Origin: Massilia sp.
GTDB lineage: Bacteria; Pseudomonadota; Gammaproteobacteria; Burkholderiales; Burkholderiaceae_D
DNA length: 16,616 nt
Reading direction: 5' to 3'
Assembly: GCA_039927975.1 (NCBI GenBank)
Contig: JBDSTZ010000252.1
Span: forward strand, 1-16,616
Shown here one piece after another: positions 297-16,222 of this stretch (position 1 is its first letter; every line of letters starts with the position of its first letter). A program made the translations under genes and the position numbers. The notes under the pieces are model-generated. The model saw nothing but the letters and a program-made list of their open reading frames with translations. It was not told the DNA's origin and searched no databases.

Positions 297-1766
297 ATGC
301 CGTTCATGATTTTGACGCGCGAAGGTTTCGACGATATCGTCGCGCGCGTGGAGCCGGCCGGTGCGGTCTTTTTGCTCAATCCGGTCATTGCGTCGGAGGC
401 CGAGATTGCGCGCCTGCGCGAGGCCGGCGGTACGGTCCATGTGCTTGATCCGGCGGCGCCGCCATCGCTGGCGGACGGCGCGCTCGATGCCGCTGGTATC
501 GGAGCCGAACCGGTGTGGGTCGAGCGTGCGACGGCCGGTTCGCGCCAGTCCGCTCTGGCCCTTGCTGCACCGGGCGCCGAACCCGAGGCCAGGCGTGCGC
601 CGCGTGCGCTGCGGCGGATCGGCAGGAGTGCCGGGGCGTTCGCCGGCGCCGCGTGGCGTGGTCTGCGTGCGGCCGGCGGGCCCCGGCGCCTGATGCTGCT
701 GCCCTACCTCGGTTTCGGTAACGCCGGCAAGCTCTGGCTCAAGGGCCGGGTGCTCGACGAACCGGCGTTTCGCGCCCAGACCGATCAGGACAGCCGCTGG
801 CGCAATATGCTCGCCTTGTACCAGCGGCTCGAATCCAACCAGGTGGCCGGCGCCCGCGTCCGCGCCAGCTTTGGCGGACAAACCTGGGACGCCGTCACCG
901 ATCGCGGCGGTTATTTTTCGTTCGAGATCGCGCCCGCGCAAGCGCTGGAAGGCGGCTGGCACGCAGTCGATCTCACCTTGCCGGACGCGCCCGACGCGAA
1001 CGGAGCCCCGCTTCACGCGAGCGCCCAGGTAATGGTGCCGGCGCCGAGCGCGCGCTTCGGCATCATCAGCGATATCGACGACACGGTGCTGTGGTCGAAC
1101 GCCACCAACAAGCTGAATATGGCGCTGATGCTGGCTCGCTCCAACCCATACACGCGGCAACCGTTCAAGGGCGTGGCGGCATTCTACCGGGCGCTCAAGG
1201 CGGGCGTCGGCGGCGAGGAAGACAACCCGGTGTTCTATGTGTCGAGCAGCCCGTGGCATCTGTTCGACCCGCTGCTCGAATTTCTGCGGCTGCGCGACAT
1301 TCCGGTCGGGCCCCTGCTGCTGCGCGAACTGGGCGTGCGCGAACTGCTGGCGTTGTCGAACCACCACCATCACAAGCTCGAGAAGATCGAGACGATCCTG
1401 CGCTTCTATCCCGGCATGCAGTTCGTGCTGATCGGCGACAGCGGCGAGCAGGACCCGGAAATCTATGCCGAGGTGGTGCGCCGCCATCCGCAGGCGGTGC
1501 GGGTGATTTATATCCGCAACGTGAACCCCGACCCTTCGCGTATCGACGCGCTTGATCGCCTGATCGAACAGGTCAGCGCCACCGGCACCCAGCTGATTCT
1601 GGCGCCCGACAGCGAGTTTGCGGCGGCCCACGCGGCGGCCGAAAAGCTGATCCAGGTCGATTGGCTGGCGGCGGTACGGCGCAATAAGAAAGAGGACGAG
1701 CGGAAGGAGGACGAGCGCAAGGAGGTCGTGCGGAAGGACGACGAGCGGCCGGCGCCGGCCACCTGA
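297..1766 (+). CDS. App1-like phosphatidate phosphatase family protein (DUF2183/App1 catalytic domain, HAD-like DxDxT), with a low-complexity KEDER-repeat C-terminal tail
   Basis: An ATG at 297 is preceded by ggagaggaaa as an RBS. The protein contains GIISDIDDTVLWSN, a HAD-type DxDxT nucleophile motif as in yeast App1 VISDIDDT, and LLPYLGFGNAGKLWLKGRVLDE, which is typical of bacterial App1 homologues. The ORF is 489 aa with strong GC3 codon bias. The 538-aa ORF on the opposite strand (258..1874) has no recognisable motifs. Confidence 0.8.
   Translation: MPFMILTREGFDDIVARVEPAGAVFLLNPVIASEAEIARLREAGGTVHVLDPAAPPSLADGALDAAGIGAEPVWVERATAGSRQSALALAAPGAEPEARRAPRALRRIGRSAGAFAGAAWRGLRAAGGPRRLMLLPYLGFGNAGKLWLKGRVLDEPAFRAQTDQDSRWRNMLALYQRLESNQVAGARVRASFGGQTWDAVTDRGGYFSFEIAPAQALEGGWHAVDLTLPDAPDANGAPLHASAQVMVPAPSARFGIISDIDDTVLWSNATNKLNMALMLARSNPYTRQPFKGVAAFYRALKAGVGGEEDNPVFYVSSSPWHLFDPLLEFLRLRDIPVGPLLLRELGVRELLALSNHHHHKLEKIETILRFYPGMQFVLIGDSGEQDPEIYAEVVRRHPQAVRVIYIRNVNPDPSRIDALDRLIEQVSATGTQLILAPDSEFAAAHAAAEKLIQVDWLAAVRRNKKEDERKEDERKEVVRKDDERPAPAT
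1690..1749 (+). repeat. In-frame 15-nt tandem repeat (aaggaggacgagcg[c/g], about 4 units) encoding the KEDER-KEDER-KEVVR-KDDER tail of the App1-like protein
   Basis: The tandem units are read directly at 1687-1749, giving the K/E/D/R-rich low-complexity C-terminus. Confidence 0.7.
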
Positions 1767-1892
1767 GCTTATCGGCGGCCAGCGTCGGCGCACTGGTATC
1801 ACAATATCAAGCCGGTATATGCGGCCCTGTTCGGGGCTTTGAAACGCGCGCGAAACCGCATACTGGTTGATCATCCACGCGCACAGCCCATC

Positions 1893-2720
1893 ATGAACTA
1901 CGGTTATCCCACGGTTGGCCCGCAGATCGCGTCAGCCACCAGCACGAGCGGCACCGGCAGCACCGGCAGCACCGGCAGCAGCACGCCCTTGTCGGCCGAC
2001 GTCGCGGCGCGCGTGAAGCAGACGCTCGCCGCACAGTCGACCGGCATCAACAAGCTCAATGACAGCCTGCTGCGCAACCAGACCAGGCTATCGGGCCTGG
2101 GCAAGCTGCAAAGCGCGCTGGCCGAGATGCAGGCCAGCGCCCAGAGCCTGTCGAGCGCGGCCACCGGCGCGAACGGCGTCGCGCCAAGCCAGGACGCCAG
2201 CCAGATCGGCAAGAACGTCCGCGCCTTCGTGGCCGCGTTCAATGCCATGAACGGCAAATTGCAAGCCTTGCAGGCGGGCGAACTCAAGTCCGATGCCGGC
2301 ATGAGCCGCGCGAGCGCCGAACTGGCGCAGCTGACTGGACTTGGCGGCGATGGCTTTTCGGCGCGCTCGCTGAGCGCGGCCGGCATCACGGTCGAGCGCA
2401 ATGGCAACTTGAAGATCGACGAGAAGGCCCTGACAGCGGCGCTGGCGAATGGTCCGTCCGCCGTCGGCGCGGTGTTTTCAAATGGCGGCAAGGGCCTGGC
2501 CGATGTGCTGGCCGACAGGCTGGCAAAACTGTCGAGCAAGGACGGCATGATCGGCAAGGAGTCGGCCAGCGCCAACAAGGAATTGAGCAGCGTGACGGCC
2601 CAGCGCACGGCGCTGGCCAAGGCGTTGACGGCGCAGGCGACCGCACTGGCGGCGATCTATTCGCGGCAGTCCGATGCACAGACCGGCAAGCCAAGCTCGC
2701 TGTTCGACATGCTGGCGTAA
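1893..2720 (+). CDS. Short FliD-family protein (flagellar filament cap / hook-associated protein 2-like) that has the N- and C-terminal FliD domains but no central head domains
   Basis: QTLAAQSTGINKLNDSLLRNQTRLSGLGKLQSALAEMQASAQSL aligns without gaps to the FliD_N consensus (..LqqkkstlqakiSAyGtLkSALstlQtalkaL). IGKNVRAFVAAFNAMNGKL matches the FliD linker pattern. LSAAGITVERNGNLKIDEKALTAALANGPSAVGAVFS matches FliD_C (ADIGITTDRNGKLSVDEAKLDKALKENPEAVKALFT). The protein is about 275 aa from the ATG at 1893; the track uses an in-frame TTG at 1839 as an alternative start. There is a Ser/Thr/Gly tract near the N-terminus (SATSTSGTGSTGSTGSST). GC3 bias is on the + strand, and the antisense ORF 1904..2620 is rejected. 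Confidence 0.6.
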   Translation: MNYGYPTVGPQIASATSTSGTGSTGSTGSSTPLSADVAARVKQTLAAQSTGINKLNDSLLRNQTRLSGLGKLQSALAEMQASAQSLSSAATGANGVAPSQDASQIGKNVRAFVAAFNAMNGKLQALQAGELKSDAGMSRASAELAQLTGLGGDGFSARSLSAAGITVERNGNLKIDEKALTAALANGPSAVGAVFSNGGKGLADVLADRLAKLSSKDGMIGKESASANKELSSVTAQRTALAKALTAQATALAAIYSRQSDAQTGKPSSLFDMLA

Positions 2721-3097: not shown

Positions 3098-3976
3098 CTA
3101 TTGGGCCCGGTCCAAACGCCGTGGCCGCTCGATCACCTCGCGGCAGGCCGCGGCGATGTCCGCTCCCCATTCGGCCAGCAGCGGCCCGGTCGGCACCAGC
3201 CGATCGTCGACTTCCAGCATGCCGATCCAGGCCCGCACCCGCACAGGCGCCAGCGCACCGAAGCACTGCTGGGCGACGACGTCCCTGCCGTTTTCCGGCC
3301 CACCCAAACGCTTGCCTGCACAGGAACCAGATTCCGGATGCAGCGGCGCGAAACCCGTTCCCTGGTTTCGCGAGTTGCCGCTCGTTTCATAGAACACGCT
3401 GATGGCGGGGGTGTAGCGCGTGAGCGTGTCCGGCAGCACCAAGGCGACGTCCCTGACCGCCGCTTCGTAGATATTCCCGGCATCGCCTTCCCACTCGATT
3501 TGCTGGCGCTGGCCGGCCGGGCCGCGGAAGCTCAGTGCCAGGCCGGCGGCGGACAGGTCGAGCGCGTCGCGATCGACCGTGAAGCGCGCTTCGAGCGGGT
3601 AGACTGGCCGGTAGTCGGGCGCGCGGCGATAGCGCAGGCTGTAGGTGATGCCTGGCGTGAAACCGCCGGCAAGTTCAAGGCGGAACAGGCGCGCGCCTCG
3701 CGGCAGGTCATTCGCCACCGGCCCTGGCCGCGCGACTTCCAGCGGCGTCACGATCAGTGCCGGCGCGAGCGCCAGTCCGGACGCGCTCACCTCGAAATCG
3801 GCAGGGTTGAGCCCCAGCGACTCGGGCACCATGAACAGCACGCCTCTCAGGTTGGACGGATACCGCTGCGCGCTGGCGTGCGGGAATCCGATCGTGGTGC
3901 TCGCGATGCACTGTGCCTGAGCGACGCCGTGCACGATTGCGGCGATGGCGAACATGACGATGCGAAGATGTTGCAT
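3098..3976 (-). CDS. Secreted protein of unknown function (Sec signal peptide), 292 aa
   Basis: An ATG at 3976 and a TAG stop at 3098-3100 bound the ORF. The N-terminus MQHLRIVMFAIAAIVHGVAQA-QC has a signal-peptide n/h/c structure. GC3 codon bias is on the minus strand. The overlapping + ORF 2963..4066 is Arg/Ala-rich with no motifs. No domain is recognisable by eye. Confidence 0.65.
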   Translation of the reverse strand: MQHLRIVMFAIAAIVHGVAQAQCIASTTIGFPHASAQRYPSNLRGVLFMVPESLGLNPADFEVSASGLALAPALIVTPLEVARPGPVANDLPRGARLFRLELAGGFTPGITYSLRYRRAPDYRPVYPLEARFTVDRDALDLSAAGLALSFRGPAGQRQQIEWEGDAGNIYEAAVRDVALVLPDTLTRYTPAISVFYETSGNSRNQGTGFAPLHPESGSCAGKRLGGPENGRDVVAQQCFGALAPVRVRAWIGMLEVDDRLVPTGPLLAEWGADIAAACREVIERPRRLDRAQ

Positions 3977-4120: not shown

Positions 4121-7081
4121 TTACTGGCCGAAGCGGTAACGCAGGTTCAGCCCGAAGTTACGGCCGTTACGATAGTGCTGCAACTCGAGGCCGGTCTCGT
4201 AATTGCCACCTGGTTCGCCGATGTAGCGGTTAGGCGCCTTGTCGAGAATGTTCGAGGCGTTCAGCGAGAGGGTCAGGTCCTTGGTGATGTTGTAGTTGAC
4301 CGAGCCGTCCAGGATACCGTAGGCGCCCATGTAGCGGCCCAAGATCGGTTGGGCGTCGAGCGCGAACACGGCGGCCGAACGCCAGGTGTAGACCAGGCGG
4401 GCGGAGAACTTCTGGTCTTCATACATGCCGCTGAAGCTGGCGCTGTTTTTCGACTGGAAGGGCTGCCACAGCTTGACGATGTTCGGTGCCGCCGCGGTGC
4501 CGTAGTTGACCGGATTCTCGGTCGTGACGTAGGTGTACGAACCGGACACGCCGAAGTTCTTCAGCCAGCTCAGCGAGTTGTCGAAGAAGTACTGGCCCGA
4601 CAGTTCGACGCCGCGTGCGAAACCTTTTTCCGCGTTGACGCGCTTGCTGACGCGATACTGGCCGTTCGTGCAGCTGTTCGACACTTGTCCATTGCCCGGC
4701 ACGTAAGCCGGCGCATTGTCGAGCGTGACGCATTCGCTGACATCGCTGAAGAAGCCCTTGATGGATTTGTTGAACACCGCCGCCGCGACATAGTTCGTCT
4801 TGTTGAAGTAGTGTTCAAGCGACAGGTCGAGGTTGTCCGACACCAGCGGCTTCAATTCCGGATTGCCGCGGCTACCGGTGCCGTCGACCGGATTGTAGTT
4901 GACGAACGGGTTCAGGTCGCCCAGCGCCGCGCGGGTCATGCCCCGGCCATAGCCGAAGCGCAGCAGGGTTTCCTTGCTGATATCGTAGGTCGCGTTGAAC
5001 GATGGCAGGGTGTTGCTGTACTCGGTGGTGCGCGCATTGTCGATCAGGCCGTTGACGCTGTTGATCTTGGTGATGGCCGTGCCGTTGGTGCGCACATAGC
5101 GCACACCGACTGCGCCGCGCAGGTGCTCGTCGAGGGCGGCGAATTCACCGACCACGTAGATGGCCTTGGTTTTCTCGTCGACGTAGCGGCGGTCCTGGAT
5201 GCGCTCGAGCAGCGCGCTTTCCATCTGGATGCCGGCCAGCGGGAATTGCGAACGGACCTGGTCGCCGAGCAGCAGATCCGGCGAGTACACCACGTAACCA
5301 CCCGAATAACCGGTGGTGCCGCCCATGAAGTTGGTCGGCGACGACTGGGTCACGCCATAGGTGCTGGCGAGGATGCCGTTGCTGCGGTCGGCTGCCAGCC
5401 CTTTGCCGTCGGTGGTCAACGGACGGTTGTTGTAGCTCCAGTTCTGCGACAAGTCGTCCTGCTTGGCAAGGCGGGTGCCGAACTTGATGCGCTTGAACAG
5501 GCCGTCCTCGATCGAATAGACGCCGGACAAGGCGAGCGCTTTGGCGCTGTCTTTGGAGGCCGAATTGTTACCGTTGTTAAATTCGCGGAACACGAAGTTG
5601 CTCGGGTCCGACAGACTCGGGCCGCTGAAATTGAGGGTGTGCGGCGAGCCATCGGCGACGCGCGAGGTGGTCCACGACAGGCCGTTCTTGGAGTCGAGGA
5701 AAACCGTGCGGTTGTCGGTGCGCTTGGTCGCTTTCAGGAAGGCGTAATCGGCTTTCAGGGCCAGGCTCGGAGTCGGGTTCCAGTCGCTGCCAAACGCCAC
5801 GTTCCAGGTCGAGTACGGGGTATGTTCGTCCACCGACACGGTGTTCACGGTCGAGTTGAGGAAGTCACCGCTCAGGGCACGCTTGGTAGCGAGCACGTCG
5901 TTGGCGCCGCCGCTGACGTTGCGTGCCGACATACCCTTGTCGAAGGTGAACGGCGAGGTTTGCAGGTTCGCCACGTTGACGCCGTCGTTCGAATTGAGGG
6001 CGCGGTAGTTCTGGTGGTACAGGTAGTAGGTGTAGTTGCTTTCGACGTAGAAGCGCAGGGTGTTGTCGACGCGGTAGTCGGCGGCGCCACTGAAGCCCTT
6101 GCGCTCGCGCATGATGGTTTCCTGCGACACGTTGGTGTTCAACGTGGTCGTGACCATGATGTTGTCGATCTGCGCTTGGGTCAGGCCGGTGTTGTCGGGT
6201 GTGTTCGGGCCGATGCTGCCGGCCGTGTTACGGATCGGCACGTTGATCAGGGCATTGATGTCGCTGCGGCCGACAAACTGCGCCTGGGCCTGGAACGGCG
6301 AGTTGGTGGTGTTGGCGGCGGCCAGGGTCGCGTACTCGGCGCTGTCGGCGCGCACCGCGCGTTTCAGGGCCGGGCCGCGGTTGCCCGGGTTGTTATCCGA
6401 GCGGTTGGTGCTGTTCTGCAATTGGCCGGCCAGGGTGTAGCCGAAGCGGCTGCCGCCGCCGAGGTCAATGCGGTTGGCAATGAGTCCGAACACATCCGGC
6501 TCGGTCTGCTTGGCCAGGTCGTTGTAGCGGGCGCCGGCGGAGATCGCGCCGGTCAGGCCCAGCTTGAAATCGCTCGGGTTGCGGGTGCGCACGTTGACCA
6601 GGCCGCCGATGCCGCCTTCGATGTGCTCGGCCGATGGATTCTTGTAGACGTCGACGCCGGCGATCATGCCGGGAATCGCGCTTTCGATGTTGTATTCGCG
6701 GTTGCCGGCGGAGAAGAACGCACGGCCGTTCACCAGCGAGGCGGTTTGGCCGGACAGGCCGCGGATGGTCAGGCCCGAACCGTTGCCGACTGGCGCCGCG
6801 CCTTCGCCGCCGTAGCGGTAGCCCTGCACGCCTGGAATCCGGGTCAGCGTTTCGGCGACGTTCGGATCGGGCAGCTTGCCGATGTCTTCGGCGGTGATCG
6901 AGTCGACCACTTCCATCGCGTCGCGCTTGATGGCGACCGACGAACGGGCGCTGGCCTTCATGCCGGTGACGACGACGGTTGGCGTGACCGCGTCGTCTGC
7001 CGCTACATGGGCGGCAAAGGCTTGCGACACCGCGAGTGCGATGGCGGACACTTTGAGTGTTCTTTGGAAATGCTTGTTCAT
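4121..7081 (-). CDS. TonB-dependent outer-membrane receptor of the large (986 aa) type typical of oligosaccharide uptake
   Basis: The signal peptide is MNKHFQRTLKVSAIALAVSQAFA-AHV. A TonB-box-like TPTVVVTG is present. Plug-domain motifs include DSITAEDIGKLPDPNVAETLTRIPGV and LTIRGLSG. The long beta-barrel ends ...LNLRYRFGQ with a terminal aromatic-x-x motif. The RBS aggggat lies 8 nt upstream of the ATG at 7081. Confidence 0.95.
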   Translation of the reverse strand: MNKHFQRTLKVSAIALAVSQAFAAHVAADDAVTPTVVVTGMKASARSSVAIKRDAMEVVDSITAEDIGKLPDPNVAETLTRIPGVQGYRYGGEGAAPVGNGSGLTIRGLSGQTASLVNGRAFFSAGNREYNIESAIPGMIAGVDVYKNPSAEHIEGGIGGLVNVRTRNPSDFKLGLTGAISAGARYNDLAKQTEPDVFGLIANRIDLGGGSRFGYTLAGQLQNSTNRSDNNPGNRGPALKRAVRADSAEYATLAAANTTNSPFQAQAQFVGRSDINALINVPIRNTAGSIGPNTPDNTGLTQAQIDNIMVTTTLNTNVSQETIMRERKGFSGAADYRVDNTLRFYVESNYTYYLYHQNYRALNSNDGVNVANLQTSPFTFDKGMSARNVSGGANDVLATKRALSGDFLNSTVNTVSVDEHTPYSTWNVAFGSDWNPTPSLALKADYAFLKATKRTDNRTVFLDSKNGLSWTTSRVADGSPHTLNFSGPSLSDPSNFVFREFNNGNNSASKDSAKALALSGVYSIEDGLFKRIKFGTRLAKQDDLSQNWSYNNRPLTTDGKGLAADRSNGILASTYGVTQSSPTNFMGGTTGYSGGYVVYSPDLLLGDQVRSQFPLAGIQMESALLERIQDRRYVDEKTKAIYVVGEFAALDEHLRGAVGVRYVRTNGTAITKINSVNGLIDNARTTEYSNTLPSFNATYDISKETLLRFGYGRGMTRAALGDLNPFVNYNPVDGTGSRGNPELKPLVSDNLDLSLEHYFNKTNYVAAAVFNKSIKGFFSDVSECVTLDNAPAYVPGNGQVSNSCTNGQYRVSKRVNAEKGFARGVELSGQYFFDNSLSWLKNFGVSGSYTYVTTENPVNYGTAAAPNIVKLWQPFQSKNSASFSGMYEDQKFSARLVYTWRSAAVFALDAQPILGRYMGAYGILDGSVNYNITKDLTLSLNASNILDKAPNRYIGEPGGNYETGLELQHYRNGRNFGLNLRYRFGQ

Positions 7082-7169: not shown

Positions 7170-7301
7170 CCGGAGCGATCATACGAGAATTTCTTTTGAT
7201 AATGAATACTTTTTTGACTTGTTGCGTATGTACAACGCTCAAGCGCCCCTCCCTCCTTTCTTGATGCGCGATACGCGCGACATGGCTCAACGGCGGCGCA
7301 T

Positions 7302-7375
7302 GTCGCGCGTGTCGTTCGTGGTCGCGCGTGTCGTTCGTGTCGCGCATGTCGTTCGTGTCGCGCATGTCGCGCAAG
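7302..7375. repeat. Tandem direct repeat with a 19-nt unit gtcgcgcgtgtcgttcgtg, two perfect and about two degenerate copies, in the PEP-CTERM/TBDR intergenic region
   Basis: Units are at 7302-7320 and 7321-7339 (both perfect), 7340-7357 (18 nt, G to A change), then a decaying copy. There are no interspersed unique spacers, so this is not a CRISPR array. It creates the artefactual MSFVSRMSFVSR peptide of track ORF 7328..8104. Confidence 0.75.
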
Positions 7376-7492
7376 TCGCATATGTCGTCCACATCGTCCG
7401 CATCGCGCGGCAACGCGGCAACACTAGCCCCGCCGACAGGGCGAGCGCCCCGTCGGCCGATCAAACATCGCGTGGAAAAATGCCTCGGTGGC

Positions 7493-8083
7493 TCAGCCCT
7501 GGCGGCGGCGCAGCGCGGCGAACATGGCGCAGCCGGCCACCAGCATCAGCAGGAACGGCGCCGGTTCCGGCACCTGGTTCACTTGCGTGAGCGCGTTGGT
7601 GACGAAGCTCAGTTGCTGGCCGATCGGCGCACCCGGCTGGACGAAAATGCTGCCGAGGTCGCCGTTGGCGCCCAGATAGCTGGTGTCGTTGAACAAGGCC
7701 CAGCTGAACGCGCTGCCGTCGCCGCTGCCGGCCACGAAGCTGACATCGAAGATGAAGTGGCCGCCCAGCGTGATCGCCTGTACCAGGTCGCCACCGCCGC
7801 CGGGGCTGCTGAACACGACTGTGCCTGGCAGCGCGCCACTGACCGAACCGCTGGTGTTCTCGGCGCCCACCAGCGCGCCGGTCAGGCCGCTGAGGGAGGC
7901 GCTGCTGCCAGTGTCGGACAACACCAGGAAATTGAAACCGAGGTAAGCGCTGCCGCTACCCAGGGTCGAGGTGTCGATGTCGACGTGGAAGTACGGCACG
8001 GCGGTCGCGCCGGCGCCGCCGGCCGAGGCGCACAGCGCGAGCGCCAGCGCCAGGCGTGCGAAGATATTTTTGTAGTGATGCAT
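7493..8083 (-). CDS. PEP-CTERM sorting-domain protein (putative exosortase substrate), about 196 aa, with a Gly/Ser-rich N-terminal domain of unknown function
   Basis: The C-terminus ...VNQVPEPAPFLLMLVAGCAMFAALRRRQG* is a canonical PEP-CTERM (VPEP, TM helix, Arg cluster). The signal peptide is MHHYKNIFARLALALALCASAGGAGA. A strong RBS AAGGAGA lies 6 nt upstream of the ATG at 8083. The track start at 8131 is rejected because it overlaps the upstream gene and has no RBS. The start is 10 nt downstream of the lyase A stop, so the two genes are in one operon. Confidence 0.85.
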   Translation of the reverse strand: MHHYKNIFARLALALALCASAGGAGATAVPYFHVDIDTSTLGSGSAYLGFNFLVLSDTGSSASLSGLTGALVGAENTSGSVSGALPGTVVFSSPGGGGDLVQAITLGGHFIFDVSFVAGSGDGSAFSWALFNDTSYLGANGDLGSIFVQPGAPIGQQLSFVTNALTQVNQVPEPAPFLLMLVAGCAMFAALRRRQG

Positions 8084-8093
8084 GGTGGTCTCC

Positions 8094-11000
8094 TTAATAT
8101 TTAACGCTGATGAATTTCGACGTGTACCCAATGGCCGCCTTGTTCGGATTCGAGAAGGTGGTCGTCAAGGTCACGGTCTGTCCAGGCGCCAGATCGGCCG
8201 CCGGCAGCGTGATGTACGGCGCGCCGTCATGCGTGCCGGTGGCGTTGTCGAGCGTGACGCCGGCGGTAAGGCCGTCGAGCCGGAATTGCAGCGGGCCGTA
8301 CAGCGTGGCGTCGCTGGTGTTGGTGATGCTGACGGTGCCGGTGTACTTGAGCGTGAAGCGGTTCATCGTCAGGCCCGAGCGCATGATCTTCGCGCTGGCG
8401 CCCAGGTCGACCGGGGTCAGCAAGTCGTAGCGGGTGCCGAAGAAGCGCAGTTCGCCGTACGACGAAATGCCGGGGAAGGCGGGATCGGTCGGCACGCCCG
8501 GATGGTCGACGCGCATCATGAAGTAGCGGTAGCGCTGCTTCTCCAGGCCTGGCACCACGGGGATGACTTCCATCTCGAAATTGCGCTCGGTGGTGTCGCT
8601 CGTTTCACGGCTCGACAGCAAGGTCCAGCTGGCGTTGTCGTTCGAGCCGTAGATGTTCAAGCCCTGCGAGCGGTTGGCGAACATGAAGCGCGCCTGCACG
8701 CCGATGGCGCCGAGCGACATCCGGTAGTCGGCGCCGAGATCGAGGTAGGCCGGCGCGCGCAGGTCGCCCGAGTAGCTGTTGTAGTCGCCGTCGACCAGCA
8801 GCGCGGCGCGGTTGCGGTCGAAATTGGTGGTGCCGGCGATGAAGTTCTTGCTCCAGTCCAGGCTGCCGTCGGCGACCACGAGCGGATTGAGCAGTTCCAG
8901 TTTGGCGGTCACGCCCTGCACTTGCTTGAGCAGGGCCGGGAAGTCGGCGTCGCTGGTGCTGTCGATGGCCGCCTGCAGCGGCGCCATGCTGGACTTGAAG
9001 GCGGCCAGCGACGGCGTGGTGTACACCTTCTCGGCGCTGTAGCCGTCCTGGGCGACCTGGAAGGCGGTGGCGCGGTCCGGTTGCACACTCAGGCGCGCCG
9101 TCATGGTGTTGATCGAGACGCCATCGGTGACGCTGATGACGATATTGTGCACGCCGACCTGGTCGGCGCCGGGGGTCCAGTTGAACTGGCCGCTGGCGCT
9201 GTCGAGGCTGGCGCCGGCCGGCAGGCTGATGCCCTCGTAGACCGGGGTGTCGGCGGCATTCGCGTCGGTCGCCTTGTAGTTGCCCGTGTACGGCACGCCC
9301 TGCACCACCAGCTCGGTGACGGGGAACGCCGGCGAGGCGAAGAACGGCACCGTCAGCTGGGTCGGCGCGGCCATGTTGACGAAGTCGACGTCCACCGTGC
9401 TGCCTTCGGCGCCGCTGAACTTGAAGACGATCAGGTTGGCGCCGAGCCACTTGCCGGCGGTCGCCGCGTTCGACGAGTCGGGCACGATGTAGCGCCACTG
9501 GCCGTGCGTGTTGGGCACCGTGATGTCGGCCCACGGACTGGCGTTCTGCTCGGCGCTGGCGCTCATTTTCATGACCGCGTTGGTGCGCACCATCATGCCC
9601 ACCGGGGCGAACTTGGCGCGGTCCGCATAGCCGACGTCGTGGAAGGCGATGGTGGCGCCGGCCGGCTTGACGTCGGCGTGGCCATAGGTGCGTCCCGCTT
9701 CGGTCTGGGTGGTCCAGGCGCCCGCGATGAAACTGCTCTTGCGTTCGGTCTGCAGCAAGCCCTGGTCGTTCGGCAGCGCCACGCCGGTCAGCGCGGTCGG
9801 GATGGTCAGGAAGGCTTGCGAGCCCATGTCCTTGTTGTTCGGCGTGGCGTTGCCCCAGAAAATGGCCGGGCCGTTCGAGTGGGCCGCCGCCGCCGCGAGG
9901 TAGGGCGCGGTCGCTTCGACGTCGACGCCTTCCTGGTACTTGTACATATTGTAGATTTCGGCGATCGCGTCGACTTCGTAGAGCCGGCCGCGGTACGCGC
10001 TCGACGGATAGGAGGTGCCGCCATTGGTGTCGGCCCACGGGATCTCGTAGCCGAGCATGTACTGGGCGTAGGCGTTGGCACCCTTTAGCAGGCGGTTGCC
10101 GCCGAACTGATAGACGCTGACCGCGTCGCCCAGGGTCGAGGGCTTGCCGCTGAAGGGATCGACCTTGGTGCCTTGCGCGTTGACCAGGCGGAACAGGCCG
10201 GACAGGATGTCGACGTTGTCGCCGCCGTGGGCTTGGTCGCGGGCCATTTCCTGGATCTGGTAGAACGGCACGCCGAACTTGTTGTACGGGTTGTTCACGT
10301 CGATGAAGGGAATCAGCGGCAGCACGGCGCCGTTGATGTTCTGGCGGGTCGAGGTGGCGTTGACCGTCATCCATTCGACGGTTTCATCGTAGCGCGCGCG
10401 GTTGTCGGTGAAGATCGCGCCCGCCATGCGTCCGACCAGCGAGTAATTGTGCTGGTTCATGAAGCGCTCGTTGCTCGAAAACAGCACGCGCTCGAGCGGG
10501 TCGATCAGGTTGTCCTTGAGCTTCTGGGTGTCGGTATCGGTCCAGGCGAGCGGATAGGAGGTGTAGCTCGGATCGGCGTAGGAGTAGCGCATGATCTCGG
10601 CCGCCTGCAGCATGCGCGAGAGCGGCACGCCGTTGTGGATGTGGGCGTCGGGGAAATACGCTGCGCCGGCCGGATTCATATTGCTCCAGGTGCGCAGGAT
10701 GCGCATGGCGTTGCGGCGATAGTCGTTATTGCCCGTCACGTAGTACAGGATGGCCTGGGTCAGCGCGCCTTGCGAATCGTTGATCAGGCGGGTCTGGGCC
10801 GTATTGTTGTTGAAGTTAGGGGTGTTCGGGGTGTCGACCTTGGTCGAGTCGCGGTTGGTCGGCTGCAGGTTGATGTTGGCGTAGTTGCAGCAGGCGGTGG
10901 CCAGCGCGTCGTAGTAACTCTTGTACGGCTCGACGTCGGCGCGCACCTGCTGACGCATGTAGTCGAGCTGCTCCATCGTGAAGCCGAGCGCCGGATGCTT

Positions 11001-11177
11001 GAAGCCGTTCGGGCTGACGACCGGCTGCGAGGCCGGGGTGGAGATGAAACCGAGCGCTTGAGCGGGCGCCGTTGCCAGCGCCCACAGGGCCGCGGCGACC
11101 GACACTGCCGTGACGCAGGCCTTGAGCGTGCCGCGTGCGGGACGCGCGATGCTGCCATTTTCATAACGATTGTGCAT
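8094..11177 (-). CDS. Secreted multidomain polysaccharide-lyase-like protein (about 1027 aa). Domains are an alginate-lyase/heparinase-type (alpha/alpha)-toroid with a beta-sandwich, a He_PIG-type Ig-like domain, an F5/8 type C (discoidin, CBM32-like) domain and a C-terminal beta-domain.
   Basis: The signal peptide is MHNRYENGSIARPARGTLKACVTAVSVAAALWALATAPAQA-LG. The ATG at 11177 with AAGGA 5 nt upstream is preferred over 11192, which has no RBS. The toroid region is paralogous to the next gene, sharing HP(A/G)L..T...(D)(F/Y)MR..V, AAEIMRY, a Q-HN motif and a RDQ(A/G)H motif. LPAGASLDSASGQFNWTPGADQVGVHNIVISVTDG matches the putative-Ig (He_PIG) pattern. ALLVDGDYNSYSGDLRAPAYLDLGADYRMSLGAIGV..IYGSNDNASWTLL matches F5/8 type C. 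The exact lyase family is unresolved. Confidence 0.75.
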   Translation of the reverse strand: MHNRYENGSIARPARGTLKACVTAVSVAAALWALATAPAQALGFISTPASQPVVSPNGFKHPALGFTMEQLDYMRQQVRADVEPYKSYYDALATACCNYANINLQPTNRDSTKVDTPNTPNFNNNTAQTRLINDSQGALTQAILYYVTGNNDYRRNAMRILRTWSNMNPAGAAYFPDAHIHNGVPLSRMLQAAEIMRYSYADPSYTSYPLAWTDTDTQKLKDNLIDPLERVLFSSNERFMNQHNYSLVGRMAGAIFTDNRARYDETVEWMTVNATSTRQNINGAVLPLIPFIDVNNPYNKFGVPFYQIQEMARDQAHGGDNVDILSGLFRLVNAQGTKVDPFSGKPSTLGDAVSVYQFGGNRLLKGANAYAQYMLGYEIPWADTNGGTSYPSSAYRGRLYEVDAIAEIYNMYKYQEGVDVEATAPYLAAAAAHSNGPAIFWGNATPNNKDMGSQAFLTIPTALTGVALPNDQGLLQTERKSSFIAGAWTTQTEAGRTYGHADVKPAGATIAFHDVGYADRAKFAPVGMMVRTNAVMKMSASAEQNASPWADITVPNTHGQWRYIVPDSSNAATAGKWLGANLIVFKFSGAEGSTVDVDFVNMAAPTQLTVPFFASPAFPVTELVVQGVPYTGNYKATDANAADTPVYEGISLPAGASLDSASGQFNWTPGADQVGVHNIVISVTDGVSINTMTARLSVQPDRATAFQVAQDGYSAEKVYTTPSLAAFKSSMAPLQAAIDSTSDADFPALLKQVQGVTAKLELLNPLVVADGSLDWSKNFIAGTTNFDRNRAALLVDGDYNSYSGDLRAPAYLDLGADYRMSLGAIGVQARFMFANRSQGLNIYGSNDNASWTLLSSRETSDTTERNFEMEVIPVVPGLEKQRYRYFMMRVDHPGVPTDPAFPGISSYGELRFFGTRYDLLTPVDLGASAKIMRSGLTMNRFTLKYTGTVSITNTSDATLYGPLQFRLDGLTAGVTLDNATGTHDGAPYITLPAADLAPGQTVTLTTTFSNPNKAAIGYTSKFISVKY

Positions 11178-11297
11178 GATTGTCCTTATCATTTTTTAAA
11201 TGACCAGGCGATCCAGGGGTCGCGTAGTTCTCCTCCAATGGTATGTTTTCGATACCACAAACGATGCTAGCATGATTTATTGTTATTTCAGTTAAGC

Positions 11298-11534: not shown

Positions 11535-13703
11535 TTAACTTTGCATCAGCGTGACAATCTCGCTGGCGCTGAGCGCGCCGCTGTAGATGCGGAAGTCGTC
11601 GATTTTGCCGTTGAAGTAAGGGTCGCTGGCGTATTGCGAGCGGCCGATCCAGTTCTGGTTGGTCGAGCCGAGCCGGAACGGCGCGTGCTTGATGTCGGGG
11701 CTCGATCCAACCAGTGCGCCGTTGACGTAGAGCGAGCCGTTGCTGCCTGCCAGGGTCACGGCCACGTGCACCCACTGCCCGGTCGGCAGCGCGGCGGTGC
11801 CGACGATGCCCTGTTCGCCGACGCCGTAATCGGTCGTGATGCCAAAGCGCAGCAGGCCGTTGTTGGTGCTCGGGGTCAGCATCATGTAGTGCTCGGTGCC
11901 GTTACCGAAATCGAAGATGCGCGTCCAGTTGCGCGCGGCGTCCCAGTACACCCAGGCGGCGATGGTGAAGTCGGCCAGCGTGCGCACCACGTCAGTCGGC
12001 AGGCTGACGTAATCGTTGCTGCCGTCGAAGGCCAGCGCGTTGCCGCTGCGCCCGGCCACCCACAACGGACCGTTGACCAGGGTGCCGGACTGGCCGCGCC
12101 CGGTGGCGTCGGCCGCCACCGTGCCGCTGGTTTCGTCGAACTTGAGCCAGACGTGCGGACGCTTGCCCGCGCCGACCTTCACCTCGGCCGAGGGCGCGCT
12201 TTCGCCGGCCGGGCCGACCGCCGTCACCACGTAATAATAGAGGCCGCTGCTCACGCCAGTGTCGGTCCAGGTGAGCAAGTCGCTGATGCCGCTGGCGACG
12301 GTGGTGTACGGCCCGCCCGAGATGGTGGCGCGCTTGACCTTGTAGCTGGTGGCCTGGGCACTGCCCCACCACGACAGCAGCACCGCGCCGCCGCTCCAGT
12401 TTCCGGTCAGCCCGCTTGGCGCTGCACCGGCGGCGTATGGATCGCGCGTGAAGGTGAGCGTGCCAAAGCCAAGCTGGTCACCGTTGCCGCCGTTGTTTTC
12501 CGGACGCATCTGCGCGGCCTGCAGCGCGGTGTACGGCGCGGCCAGGCCCTTGCGGTTGACGTAGTGGTTCAGCACCAGTTCCCACACCGGACGCAGGCTG
12601 CCCTGCGAGGCCGGCGACAGCCCCGGCTGGGTGTTGTTGATGTTCTTGTAGAGCGTGAACGGCACACTGTAGTGGGCGCCGCTGGCGTCGGTCAGATTCG
12701 ATTTCGCCACATACTCCGAGCCGGCCAGGAAGCGGTTGTTATCGTAGCCGAACATGTCGTCGCCCTGGTTCCAGGCCATTTCGCAAAACACACTGGCGAG
12801 GCCGATCCCCAGCGTGCAGTGGCCCTGATCGCGGCCGCTTTCCTGCCACTGTCCCAGATGACCCGGATGCACGTAGTACACGGCCTGGCTGCTGCTGCCG
12901 TTGCCCGCTCCGGTCTTGAAGTAATTGATCGCCTCGTCGTACAGGTCGGCGCGGTCGCAAAAGACGCCGATCGCGATGATCGCGGCGATCGTGCACTGGT
13001 CCCAGTTGGCCCAGTAATTGGTGATGTCGGCGCCGTTGTGCTGGACCAGGAACTGGTGGTTCAGCGGATAGAAGACATTGAGCAGCAAGTTCTGGAACTT
13101 GGTCTGGTCGGCCGCCGCCCAGCCGGGATAGGTGCGCATGATTTCGGCGGCGTTGGCCCATTCGTAGCCTTGGATGCCGGCAGCGAGGAAGCGGTCGGCG
13201 TTGCCGGTCAGGGTCGTCATGGTCGACGACCAGGCGTTCAGGAAGACCACCGCCTGGTCGGCGTAGGCGGTGTCGCCGGAAACCTTCCAGCGCAGCGCCA
13301 TCTGGTAGGTGCGATGGATATCGATAACCATTTGGTTCACGTTGTCGCCGGTGCCGCCGCGGATCACCGTCTGCAGCGCGCGCGGCGCGGTGCCGAGCTG
13401 GGAGTAGCCGTTGGCCAGCAGAGCGTTCCAGCCGTCCAGCCAGGGCTGGGCGCCGGCCGTCACCTTGGCGCGCATGCGGGTGAAGTCCGCTTCGGTGTGC
13501 AGCAGGCCCGGGTGGATGAAGGTGCGCGCGACCAGGGCGTCGGCGAGCAGGGTCGGCGCCGCCGCGCCGGGGGCCGCCGTGGAGGTCTCGGCCGCGCCGC
13601 CGCAACCGGACAGGCTGAGCGGGCCGAGCGTGGCCAGCCCGAGTCCGCCCGCGCACAGCGAACGGCGTTTCATGGAAAATTTTTGATCGTTGTTATTTGA
13701 CAT
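11535..13703 (-). CDS. Lipoprotein alginate-lyase-family-like (alpha/alpha-toroid) polysaccharide lyase with a C-terminal fibronectin type III domain and a LamG_3 (concanavalin A-like lectin) domain, 722 aa
   Basis: The ATG at 13703 has GAGGAG 5 nt upstream. The N-terminus MSNNNDQKFSMKRRSLCAGGLGLATLGPLSLSGC has a lipobox LSGC, and the RRSL may indicate Tat export. The catalytic toroid is paralogous to lyase A (FIHPGLLHTEADFTRMRAKV, AAEIMRTY, VQHN, RDQGHCTLG). An FN3-like segment follows (SWWGSAQATSYKVKRATISGGPYTTVASG...YYYVVTAV). LamG_3 motifs are also present (WVYWDAARNWTRIFDFGNG....GKIDDFRIYSGALSASEI). Confidence 0.8.
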   Translation of the reverse strand: MSNNNDQKFSMKRRSLCAGGLGLATLGPLSLSGCGGAAETSTAAPGAAAPTLLADALVARTFIHPGLLHTEADFTRMRAKVTAGAQPWLDGWNALLANGYSQLGTAPRALQTVIRGGTGDNVNQMVIDIHRTYQMALRWKVSGDTAYADQAVVFLNAWSSTMTTLTGNADRFLAAGIQGYEWANAAEIMRTYPGWAAADQTKFQNLLLNVFYPLNHQFLVQHNGADITNYWANWDQCTIAAIIAIGVFCDRADLYDEAINYFKTGAGNGSSSQAVYYVHPGHLGQWQESGRDQGHCTLGIGLASVFCEMAWNQGDDMFGYDNNRFLAGSEYVAKSNLTDASGAHYSVPFTLYKNINNTQPGLSPASQGSLRPVWELVLNHYVNRKGLAAPYTALQAAQMRPENNGGNGDQLGFGTLTFTRDPYAAGAAPSGLTGNWSGGAVLLSWWGSAQATSYKVKRATISGGPYTTVASGISDLLTWTDTGVSSGLYYYVVTAVGPAGESAPSAEVKVGAGKRPHVWLKFDETSGTVAADATGRGQSGTLVNGPLWVAGRSGNALAFDGSNDYVSLPTDVVRTLADFTIAAWVYWDAARNWTRIFDFGNGTEHYMMLTPSTNNGLLRFGITTDYGVGEQGIVGTAALPTGQWVHVAVTLAGSNGSLYVNGALVGSSPDIKHAPFRLGSTNQNWIGRSQYASDPYFNGKIDDFRIYSGALSASEIVTLMQS

Positions 13704-13793
13704 TCGGTCTCCTCTTCAGTTGAAAGCCCGCGTGCCCGGCGAGATTGTCGAGCATGAACGGGGGTGCTTGAAGCAGGCAGATTATGCGCGGTA

Positions 13794-13809
13794 TTTTATC
13801 GATAACACG
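13794..13809. promoter_or_regulatory. Candidate operator ttTTATCGATAACAcg (perfect 10-bp palindrome TTATCGATAA) upstream of lyase B, adjacent to a CATAAT -10-like hexamer
   Basis: The site lies 91-106 nt upstream of the lyase B ATG on the minus strand. On the minus strand the order is TGTTATCGATAAAA, then taccgcg, then CATAAT. It is the same motif as at 7154-7169 and 11298-11336. Confidence 0.45.
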
Positions 13810-13901
13810 ATTGCTCACCTATGGTTTTTTTCACGGGAAGTCGGGCTGTGTTTACGTGTTTTGGTATGCCTTCAGCGTGTTTGGACGGAAGTTCACGCAG
13901 G

Positions 13902-13977
13902 ATGCATTTGAGATGCATTCGGCATGCAATCACTATGCAATCAGCATGCAATCAGCGTTCAATCAGCGGGTAATCGT
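13902..13977. repeat. Array of 7 heptads ATGCA(A/T)T (decaying to gttcaat and gggtaat) at exact 11-bp spacing, with a core unit ATGCAATCAGC
   Basis: Heptad starts are at 13902, 13913, 13924, 13935, 13946, 13957 and 13968. The array lies in the divergent intergenic region between lyase B (-) and the flotillin-like gene (+). It creates a spurious N-terminal extension of track ORF 13784..16222. Confidence 0.8.
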
Positions 13978-14266
13978 GATGCGGTGGATATGTACTCGGT
14001 CGGCGAACCGCAACGTGCGCAATGGCCCGGACCGGTCCGGCGCTGCGCAGGGAGCACAGGATGCGGCATCAGGACGCCCGACGTTTACGGATTGTTTACG
14101 CCATCCGGCAATGTCTTTACGACATTTTTATCGCCGGGCCGATACGCTGATTGCATGGCCGAACCCTCTGTTGTCCCGCCGCCCGCGCAGCGCGCCGGCC
14201 GACACCGAGGCGCCCACTTTGTCGACCGCCGTGTTCGCCGCGCGTCGACTGTATCGAAGGAACGCT

Positions 14267-16222
14267 ATGTTAGAGACAGTTTCGATTTTAAAGATATCCG
14301 CAGTGCTCATCATCGCCCTGCTCCTGTTCCTGGCCAGCCAGGTGGTGGTCTACATCGCCAACGAGAAAATCGGTATCGTGGAAAAGAAATGGTCGCGCCA
14401 CGGCTCGGTGCGCCACGGTTTCATCGCCCTGCACGGCGAGGCCGGCTTCCAGCCCGAGGTGCTGCGCGGCGGCTTCCACGTGTTCTTCCCCTTCCAGTAC
14501 CGGGTGCACCGGCACGACCTGGTCACCGTGCAGCAAGGCACCCTCGCCTACGTCTTCGCGCGCGACGGCCTGGCGATGGAGCCGACCCAGAACCTGGCTT
14601 GCAACAAGCACGCCAAGGACTTCACCGACGTGCGCGCCTTCCTGACCGACGGCGGCCAGAAGGGTCTGCAACGCAAGATCCTGCGCGAGGGGACCTACGC
14701 CATCAACCTGGCCCAGTTCGTCGTGCTCACGGCCGACAAGGTGTATGCGCTGCGCCTGCCCGGCGACGGCAATATCGACGGCGCCGGCGAGGCGGTCGGC
14801 AAGCTGGCTGAAACGCTCGACGAGGTGCGCCGGCGCGACGGCTTCGAGCCGCTGGTGATTCGCGCCGACAAGCTGGCCGTGATCACCACCCACGAAGGCC
14901 AGTCGCTGCCGGAAGGCACGATCGTCGCGCCGGTGGTCGGCGCCGACCCGGCCGACCCGGCCAGCTACCACCACGATTACCAGAATCCGGAAGTGTTCAT
15001 CGAAGCCGGCGGTTACAAGGGGCGTCAGCTGCAGGTGCTGGTCGAAGGCACTTACTATCTCAACGCCCGCTTCGCCTCGTATGAGATCGTCGACAAGACG
15101 GTGGTCGCGGTCGGCTTTGTCGGCGTGGTCGTGTCCTACACCGGCAAGACCGGCAACGATCTTACCGGCGAGGCCTACCGCCATGGCGAACTGGTCAGCA
15201 GCGACGAGAAAGGCGTGCTGGCCACGCCGCTGATGCCCGGCAAGTACGCGCTCAATCCCTACGCCAAGCGCGTCATCGACGTGCCGACCACTAACTTCAT
15301 CTTGAAGTGGCAGTCGGGCGCGGTCGGCTCGCACGAACTCGACAAGCACCTGAGCGAAGTCTCGCTGATCACCAAGGATGCCTTCGAGCCGGACCTGCCG
15401 CTGTCGGTGGTGGTCAATATCGACTACAAGATGGCGCCGCTGGTGATCCAGCGTTTCGGCGACATCCGCAAGCTGGTCGAGCAGACCCTCGACCCGATGG
15501 TGGCCGCCTACTTCAAGAACATTGGCCAGGGCAAGACGCTGATCGAGCTGCTGCAGGAACGATCCGATATCCAGGAGCGCGCCAAGGCCGAGATGCGCAA
15601 GAATTTCGAGGGCTACAACCTGACCTTGAACGAGGTGCTGATCGGCACCCCGCGCGCCAAGGATGGCGACACCCAAATCGAGGTGATCCTCAAGCAGCTG
15701 CGCGAGCGCCAGGTCTCGCGCGAGCAGCTTGAAACCTACAAGACCAAGGAAGTGGCGGCGGTGCAGGAGCGCATCTTGCGCGAAGCCGAGGCCAGGGCCA
15801 AGCAGCAGACCGCGATCACCGAGTCCGAGCTCGCCGTCAAGATCGCCGAGAACCAGGGTAGCGCGGCGGTGCAGAAGGCCACCAAGGCGGCCGAGGAAGC
15901 ACGCCAGAGCGCCAGTGGCGCGGCCGACGCCAAGCGCTCGCTGGCCGAGGCCGAAGCCTTCCAGATCCAGCGCGTCGGCCAGGCCCAGGCCACCGCCACC
16001 GAACTGAACGTAGCCGCGTATGGCGGCCCCGAGCTGCAATTCCAGCAGACCGTGCTGCTGCGCTTTGCCGAGGCGATCGAACGCGGCCGCATTGCGCTGG
16101 TGCCGTCGATTCAAGCGGGCGGCCAGGGCGGCGGTTCGGCGATCGATGCGTTCATGGGGCTGGCGGCGAGGGAGTTGCTGGCGAAGGGCCGCAGTGCGGA
16201 GACGGATGGCGGCACGCAGTAA
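14267..16222 (+). CDS. SPFH/band-7 domain protein, flotillin-like (YqiK family), about 651 aa with an N-terminal TM helix and an Ala/Glu-rich coiled-coil C-terminal half
   Basis: An ATG at 14267 is preceded by gaaggaacgct. The N-terminus MLETVSILKISAVLIIALLLFLASQVVVYIA is a TM helix. It is followed by an SPFH-like region (KIGIVEKKW...GFHVFFPFQYRVHRHDLVTVQQG). A long EA-rich repeat region follows (EARAKQQTAITESELAVKIAENQGSAAVQKATKAAEEARQ...) and the protein ends in a Gly-rich tail. The track start at 13784 and the antisense ORF 14288..16339 are rejected. Confidence 0.85.
   Translation: MLETVSILKISAVLIIALLLFLASQVVVYIANEKIGIVEKKWSRHGSVRHGFIALHGEAGFQPEVLRGGFHVFFPFQYRVHRHDLVTVQQGTLAYVFARDGLAMEPTQNLACNKHAKDFTDVRAFLTDGGQKGLQRKILREGTYAINLAQFVVLTADKVYALRLPGDGNIDGAGEAVGKLAETLDEVRRRDGFEPLVIRADKLAVITTHEGQSLPEGTIVAPVVGADPADPASYHHDYQNPEVFIEAGGYKGRQLQVLVEGTYYLNARFASYEIVDKTVVAVGFVGVVVSYTGKTGNDLTGEAYRHGELVSSDEKGVLATPLMPGKYALNPYAKRVIDVPTTNFILKWQSGAVGSHELDKHLSEVSLITKDAFEPDLPLSVVVNIDYKMAPLVIQRFGDIRKLVEQTLDPMVAAYFKNIGQGKTLIELLQERSDIQERAKAEMRKNFEGYNLTLNEVLIGTPRAKDGDTQIEVILKQLRERQVSREQLETYKTKEVAAVQERILREAEARAKQQTAITESELAVKIAENQGSAAVQKATKAAEEARQSASGAADAKRSLAEAEAFQIQRVGQAQATATELNVAAYGGPELQFQQTVLLRFAEAIERGRIALVPSIQAGGQGGGSAIDAFMGLAARELLAKGRSAETDGGTQ

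Follow-up and report, generated by a model that had tools for sequence, protein, structure and literature searches.

A candidate two-gene module in Massilia and its relatives pairs secreted enzymes sharing a C-terminal domain with an NF038129-family PEP-CTERM protein

The window analyzed here comprises one complete contig (16,616 bp) from a Massilia sp. metagenome-assembled genome, and our subject is a pair of genes on its minus strand, one encoding a large secreted enzyme that we call lyase A and the other a small protein of the NF038129 family that ends in a PEP-CTERM sorting signal (Table 1). The gene order on this strand is lyase B, a terminator-like hairpin, lyase A, the PEP-CTERM gene, a 411-nucleotide (nt) gap, and a gene for a TonB-dependent receptor. 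The tail of lyase A is a portable C-terminal (CT) domain, which is also found on nucleases, xylanases, and pectate lyases and which is almost always followed by an NF038129 gene. Judged from these sequences, the CT enzyme and its NF038129 neighbor appear to form a widespread two-gene module that is apparently undescribed. The original prediction, made from the DNA alone, was not aware of such an arrangement having been reported, and our literature search likewise found no description of NF038129 pairing with a portable C-terminal domain or of a PEP-CTERM anchor acting in trans.

Table 1. Features of the lyase A/PEP-CTERM pair and of the remainder of the window.
Feature	Position	Strand	Details
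APP1-type phosphatidate phosphatase gene	297-1766	+	163.6 bits; adjoins FliD-like open reading frame
FliD-like open reading frame	1839-2720	+	293 aa, TTG start; FliD_C 64.6 bits; FliD_N 22.4 bits (cutoff 24.8)
TonB-dependent receptor	4121..7081	-	TIGR01782, 485 bits; Xanthomonas/Caulobacter carbohydrate-uptake subfamily; downstream of pair
NF038129-family PEP-CTERM protein gene	7493..8083	-	196 aa plus stop
PEP-CTERM sorting signal	7496..7573	-	Residues 171-196: VPEP, hydrophobic helix, RRRQG
Mature domain, predicted beta-sandwich/jelly-roll	7574..8002	-	Residues 28-170, ~143 aa, Gly/Ser-rich
Signal peptide of PEP-CTERM protein	8003..8083	-	Residues 1-27, ...GATA/VPY; by eye from the translation
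Junction	8084..8096	-	TAA 8096-8094, AAGGAGA 8095-8089, 10-nt spacer, then ATG
Lyase A	8094..11192	-	1032 aa, secreted, lyase-like
CT domain	8097..8420	-	Last ~105 residues of lyase A (925-1032); portable beta-sandwich co-occurring with NF038129
Lyase A Sec signal peptide (predicted)	11055..11192	-	Residues 1-46, ...APAQA/LG; read from the translation
Terminator-like hairpin	11491-11474		Upstream of lyase A, separating lyase B from lyase A
Lyase B	11535..13703	-	Pfam: Alginate_lyase + Laminin_G_3
SPFH/Band 7 protein	13784-16222	+	812 aa; domain at residues 441-655 only; unusually long for the family

The PEP-CTERM gene begins with an ATG at 8083-8081, which leaves 10 nt (8093-8084) after the stop codon of lyase A. 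The GGAG core of its Shine-Dalgarno sequence occupies 8093-8090, directly after the TAA and 6 nt ahead of the ATG, and neither a promoter-like nor a terminator-like site was found in the interval between the two genes. The positions of the stop and start codons and the 10-nt distance given in the original prediction are confirmed on the minus strand, and the tight coupling geometry is real; the ribosome-binding site does not lie inside the last codons of lyase A, as had been stated, and AAGGAGA instead takes in the final two bases of the TAA and runs on into the spacer. Translationally coupled pairs are recognized by a stop-to-start distance of a few bases and a Shine-Dalgarno sequence at the end of the upstream gene, and both are present here.

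The same arrangement recurs in related genomes. A scan of one genome per species yielded 41 loci, of which all but one Burkholderia sp. record are from Oxalobacteraceae (Massilia, Duganella, Pseudoduganella, and Telluria), the genome sample being confined to Oxalobacteraceae because the query was built from close relatives only. Among the 43 genome pairs, the distance from stop to start is 11 nt in 22, 10 nt in 18, 9 nt in one, and 12 nt in one, with an ATGA overlap in the remaining one, and GGAG or AGGA begins directly after the upstream stop codon. In a total of 127 pairs, the smallest gap is -4 nt, the largest 38 nt, and the most frequent 11 nt, and a Shine-Dalgarno-like motif is present in 113. 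This junction geometry is far beyond chance, and lyase A and the PEP-CTERM gene may be translationally coupled.

The PEP-CTERM protein belongs over its full length to NCBIfam NF038129, which it matches with 151.6 bits (cutoff 65) over residues 10-195, corresponding to positions 2-194 of the 194-position profile. A Gly/Ser-rich domain of about 140 residues and a PEP-CTERM tail had been described from the sequence at the outset, and both are evident, in contrast to the accompanying claim that the protein has no recognizable family. Its C-terminal sequence is VPEPAPFLLMLVAGCAMFAALRRRQG, within which the sorting signal is composed of VPEP, APFLLMLVAGCAMFAAL, and RRRQG. This signal belongs to TIGR02595 (PEP_CTERM; 20.2 bits against a cutoff of 16) and scores slightly below the cutoff of the Pfam PEP-CTERM model PF07589 (20.0 against 20.7), and P172, E173, and P174 are invariant across 43 homologues. 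In an AlphaFold2 model of the protein (pLDDT 86), a helix at residues 2-21 is followed by a low-confidence linker, and the mature domain is predicted to adopt a jelly-roll, lectin-like fold. An identical NCBI protein already bears the name “NF038129 family PEP-CTERM protein [Massilia sp.]”; family and sorting signal are thus both already known, and the family name has no function attached to it. A literature search found no paper mentioning NF038129, although the search did not cover the comment of the NCBIfam curators.

Sorting of such a protein would call for an exosortase (EpsH/Xrt), and family scans found no gene for one within the contig. Indirect support for one comes from other genomes: EpsH is reported to be present wherever PEP-CTERM is (Haft 2006, PMC1569441), and a Janthinobacterium genome from the same family as Massilia carries XrtA-system genes together with at least 27 PEP-CTERM proteins (PMC7662799).

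Lyase A is only weakly tied to alginate lyases by its sequence, and “lyase-like” is a reasonable but provisional label for it. Residues 110-273 match part of the Pfam model Alginate_lyase (PF05426) with 25.1 bits against a cutoff of 22.2, He_PIG follows at residues 628-695, and there is a weak F5/8 type C match at 793-872. No sequence relative of lyase A was found in the PDB, and a profile of its homologues reached the alginate lyase family structure 8bdq only at E = 0.23. Searches of the plasmid collection and of PDB sequences returned nothing useful. In 26 homologues, residues N246, Q247, and H248 are conserved; they resemble the NNHSYW motif. In the NCBI record, the protein starts at M6, is 1027 aa long, and bears the name “putative Ig domain-containing protein”.

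A lyase A homologue precedes the NF038129 gene in 43 of the 43 cases with upstream DNA (the 41 loci and the window), so that, in every testable genome locus, the adjacency whose absence from other genomes was to refute the original prediction is present. These upstream enzymes are of two types. The first comprises lyase A orthologues of ~1030 aa that are ~70% identical, and the second is a paralogue of ~1580 aa, which in several genomes forms tandem arrays of two or three enzyme-partner pairs (three pairs in L018 and two each in L016, L019, L020, and L023, with near-identical junctions between the copies). A Massilia phosphatilytica assembly (L039-L041) breaks within such pairs at three contig ends. 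Between the type 2 paralogue and lyase A, identity is only ~32% across residues 25-966 but 64-70% across residues 928-1031, a contrast that gave the first sign that the partner follows the tail of the enzyme and not its catalytic part. Lyase B, having neither a CT domain nor a partner gene, serves as an internal negative control.

The genes of more distant NF038129 members (148-172 bits) begin 12-15 nt after those of proteins of 984-1018 aa that have LTD and Exo_endo_phos domains. The one of these nucleases that was scanned against NCBIfam, from L044, is an ExeM/NucH extracellular endonuclease (NF033681, 546 bits), and all that the ExeM/NucH nucleases have in common with lyase A is the last ~105 residues, at 50-59% identity. 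Two nuclease pairs, at L044 10157-16615 and L045 14118-16609, adjoin the type II secretion genes GspG, F, and E (L044 also a secretin gene), and further PEP-CTERM proteins and nucleotide-sugar genes are found in the same neighborhoods.

The wider range of host enzymes comes from metagenome loci and from a search of cluster representatives, as a word-indexed protein search with the CT profile yielded almost exclusively short fragments at contig ends. Searching metagenome contigs with an alignment of the CT tail alone gave 80 loci, in which the CT domain is always C-terminal, ending 0-5 residues ahead of the stop codon, and the NF038129 gene is directly next in all but four, two of which end at a contig edge. 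The profile search of 1.84 billion cluster representatives returned 5650 proteins with the CT domain (3257 at E <= 1e-10); the domain is C-terminal in nearly all of the best 150 matches, and GH3, GH28, and pectinesterase are further hosts. Over all loci, a CT enzyme is paired with an NF038129 gene in 128 of 130 testable cases, and a CT domain precedes every full-length NF038129 gene that has upstream DNA. The hosts in these pairs are lyase-like enzymes of type 1 (41 pairs) and type 2 (24), ExeM/NucH nucleases (41), GH10 (3) and GH30 (3) enzymes, PL1 (2) and PL9 (1) pectate lyases, and 13 proteins too short to classify. The pairing is therefore near-obligate across at least seven enzyme classes. 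A small partner for the lyase had been suggested at the outset, and the adjacency on which that idea was built has held up; the partnership with the lyase as such has not, since it goes with the CT domain on the nucleases, xylanases, and pectate lyases as well. A role of the partner in immunity or inhibition was considered and rejected, as one partner family serves many catalytic classes.

This breadth also bears on the suggestion that the PEP-CTERM protein serves the lyase as a module for substrate binding or specificity. Its predicted jelly-roll, lectin-like fold would suit such a role, but the same family partners enzymes acting on DNA, xylan, pectin, and unknown glycans, and the partnership tracks the shared tail and not the catalytic domain, which together make this part of the original prediction highly improbable.

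Two observations on more remote proteins connect the domains further. In a remote CT subfamily, three members are followed by NF038129-like PEP-CTERM genes; where the frames are intact, the two genes are 1 nt apart or overlap by 4 nt. In the 3995-aa protein P0298, CT-like domains (2106-2207 and 2587-2686) and NF038129-like domains (2303-2430 and 3192-3324) occur in the same polypeptide, which would constitute a Rosetta-stone type of link between the two. They alternate along this single chain, which also carries PKD-like “WGDGT” repeats. A second candidate fusion, P0370, was rejected as a read-through call because an internal signal peptide is retained, and the idea that CT and NF038129 are homologous halves was dismissed by hhalign (probability 2.4%).

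Enzymes related to the CT hosts carry anchors of their own. The C-terminus of Shewanella ExeM bears a GlyGly-CTERM membrane anchor with a rhombosortase site (PMC6085458), the Paenibacillus homologues of lyase A (P0140 and P0149) carry SLH domains, and actinobacterial homologues cover only ~84% of lyase A, consistent with their lacking the tail. Because homologous enzymes have cis anchors at the same end, we regard an anchor or adaptor in trans as the best reading of the NF038129 protein, that is, an exosortase-sorted partner that would hold the enzyme at the surface. The surface-anchored partner or adaptor sorted by exosortase that had first been proposed thus remains the favored interpretation, to which we assign roughly an even chance. 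The differences between the two arrangements are that the present enzymes, although of the same catalytic families as the cis-anchored Shewanella and Paenibacillus proteins, end in a soluble beta-sandwich and that their sorting signal would reside on a separate polypeptide.

In the mechanism that we envisage, an enzyme with a CT domain and its NF038129 protein would be made from the same mRNA, possibly in a 1:1 ratio, with the second ribosome-binding site placed at the stop codon of the first gene. Both proteins would be exported by Sec, the NF038129 domain would bind the CT domain of its co-produced enzyme, and the PEP-CTERM tail would be processed by exosortase. The partner could then retain the anchorless enzyme on the cell surface or within the layer of exopolysaccharide, where breakdown products would be freed beside the TonB-dependent receptor encoded downstream. 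A broader formulation, in which CT and NF038129 make up a general in-trans sorting system and a dedicated PEP-CTERM adaptor recognizes a portable tag on secreted hydrolases, lyases, and nucleases, is offered tentatively, as we place it somewhat below an even chance.

Several points weigh against the in-trans anchor. Two CT enzymes, in L099 and L124, have no partner; the former (4531-6312), a PL9 pectate lyase, has an unrelated gene behind it, the latter (34-2655) is a nuclease with a degenerate-looking tail, and partner loss is possible in both. Divergence of the CT domain and of NF038129 is correlated after the divergence of the catalytic domain has been removed (partial Mantel, partial r = 0.38-0.53), but the converse partial correlation, between the catalytic domain and NF038129, is also positive, so that the test is not specific, and physical linkage alone could give such a signal. 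It is also unclear why each enzyme should have a separate anchor gene rather than a fused or shared anchor. Lastly, the CT domain may bind a glycan and not a protein, as the folds nearest to it are carbohydrate-binding modules.

The last of these points leads to a different explanation, in which the CT domain would act as a genuine carbohydrate-binding module that attaches to the cell's own exopolysaccharide, or to glycans on the Gly/Ser/Thr-rich NF038129 protein, and the link between the two proteins would be glycan-mediated. The domain has no Pfam or NCBIfam model, and its predicted fold, which is confidently modeled, is a CBM2-like beta-sandwich. The binding faces of CBM2 domains use exposed tryptophans. 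The CT domain resembles CBM2 in fold alone, with neither the sequence family nor the exposed tryptophan face: 10 CT-domain members gave zero matches to Pfam CBM_2 at E <= 10, and residues 925-1032 of lyase A contain no tryptophan. It differs further in sitting on DNA nucleases and in being accompanied by NF038129, and a generic carbohydrate-binding module would have no need of a dedicated partner gene that follows it by ~10 nt, as one does in 128 of 130 cases. We consider a glycan-mediated link unlikely for these reasons.

An association of many unrelated secreted enzymes with one C-terminal beta-sandwich and a dedicated next gene also follows the logic of a tag and its adaptor, as would be expected if the CT domain were a secretion tag and the NF038129 protein a cargo-specific pilot or chaperone across the envelope. 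Type IX secretion offers the model for this, in which type-B C-terminal domains on the cargo are accompanied by cognate PorP/SprF-like genes in adjacent positions. The likeness is one of genetic logic, in that varied cargo proteins share a C-terminal beta-sandwich and the gene of a cognate partner comes directly after each; the phylum and the machinery are different, and the partner here is a PEP-CTERM protein instead of an outer-membrane barrel. An NCBIfam scan of lyase A gave no match to a type IX C-terminal domain or to any other family at E <= 0.01. The type II secretion genes beside the nuclease pairs of L044 and L045 speak for an export factor, but neither the window nor most of the other loci have such a neighborhood. 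The partner, moreover, itself bears a sorting or anchoring signal, and homologues swap the tail for anchors and not for secretion tags, so that an export role appears rather improbable next to what an anchor or adaptor in trans would explain.

The correlated divergence described above could also be reconciled with no direct link between the proteins, the genes being co-inherited as a compact cassette or the small protein having an independent role in the matrix. Mirror-tree correlations are expected in any event because adjacent DNA is co-inherited, and the evolutionary rate of NF038129 is about double that of the CT domain. Co-inheritance does not readily account for CT and NF038129 staying together across at least seven unrelated catalytic classes with the spacing held at about 10-12 nt, or for the presence of both domain types in one polypeptide in P0298. 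The gene layout is a further difficulty for it: typical PEP-CTERM genes form single-gene operons that are preceded by long intergenic regions containing a sigma-54 site (PMC1569441), unlike the genes described here. We therefore hold the absence of any direct link to be very unlikely.

The comparison with other PEP-CTERM proteins extends beyond gene layout. The NF038129 protein has the signal peptide, C-terminal PEP motif, hydrophobic helix, and basic cluster of the PEP-CTERM/exosortase system, whose hosts are exopolysaccharide-making Proteobacteria of soil and rhizosphere (PMC1569441). It departs from that system in that its gene comes second in a coupled pair, 10 nt behind the first, and in that the enzyme that would profit from sorting carries no signal itself. 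By analogy, the module also recalls cohesin and dockerin, in that a small C-terminal module of diverse polymer degraders would dock to a surface-anchored partner. There is no homology between the two systems, however, and the CT domain is a beta-sandwich of ~105 residues, not a calcium-binding dockerin. Each enzyme here has its own partner gene in place of a shared multi-cohesin scaffold, and the organisms are Gram-negative.

Two proteins that looked like stand-alone CT domains, P0204 and P0217, were considered as a three-gene variant of the module and rejected, as they derive from an enzyme-gene frameshift (L131) and an in-frame TAG (L132). The loci come from two different Pseudoduganella genomes, and in both (L131 5950-6000 and L132 5965-5975) the type 2 enzyme gene is broken at the same codon, after “WSVD” and just before the CT domain, by a 1-nt frameshift in the former and by the TAG in the latter. 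The broken genes yield annotated “hypothetical” open reading frames of 109 and 112 aa that consist of the CT domain alone. Interruption at the same codon may reflect coincidence, decay, or something regulated. For annotation, it means that disrupted enzyme genes give rise to spurious “hypothetical” open reading frames of ~110 aa made up of the CT domain.

The genes surrounding the pair suggest a setting for it. In L022, L029, and L038, the pair is followed at a distance of 1-5 kb by an orthologue of the TonB-dependent receptor (55-57% identity), and the receptor is likely the uptake partner within the locus. The 411-nt gap that separates its gene from the PEP-CTERM gene contains tandem 9-nt and 18-nt repeats at 7296-7387 and also at 7385-7422, with the consensus GCGCATGTC / TGTCGCGCATGTCGTTCG in about 4-10 copies. 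A homologue of lyase B (Alginate_lyase + Laminin_G_3) is located directly downstream of the NF038129 gene in L049 (722-2947), and another lies on the opposite strand ~5 kb from the pair in L003 (14966-17113). Because lyase B homologues recur near the pair, the lyase-like genes A and B may share one utilization locus. Farther away in the window, the FliD-like open reading frame may encode a truncated or diverged cap-like protein; Pfam and NCBIfam scans of the window found no other flagellar genes.

The effect of exosortase on its substrates and the purpose of most PEP-CTERM proteins are still largely unknown, and the module described here supplies a defined and testable pair of cargo and adaptor in which the adaptor is small and predicted to fold well and the activities of the hosts (nuclease, xylanase, and pectate lyase) are easily assayed. 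If the NF038129 protein does act as an anchor, this would account for how the polymer degraders of soil Betaproteobacteria stay near TonB-dependent uptake without lipoprotein or cis anchors, and counts of PEP-CTERM proteins would underestimate the exosortase-dependent surface proteome. Should CT and NF038129 amount to a general sorting system, the exosortase pathway would carry or anchor far more enzymes than those that bear a PEP-CTERM signal themselves.

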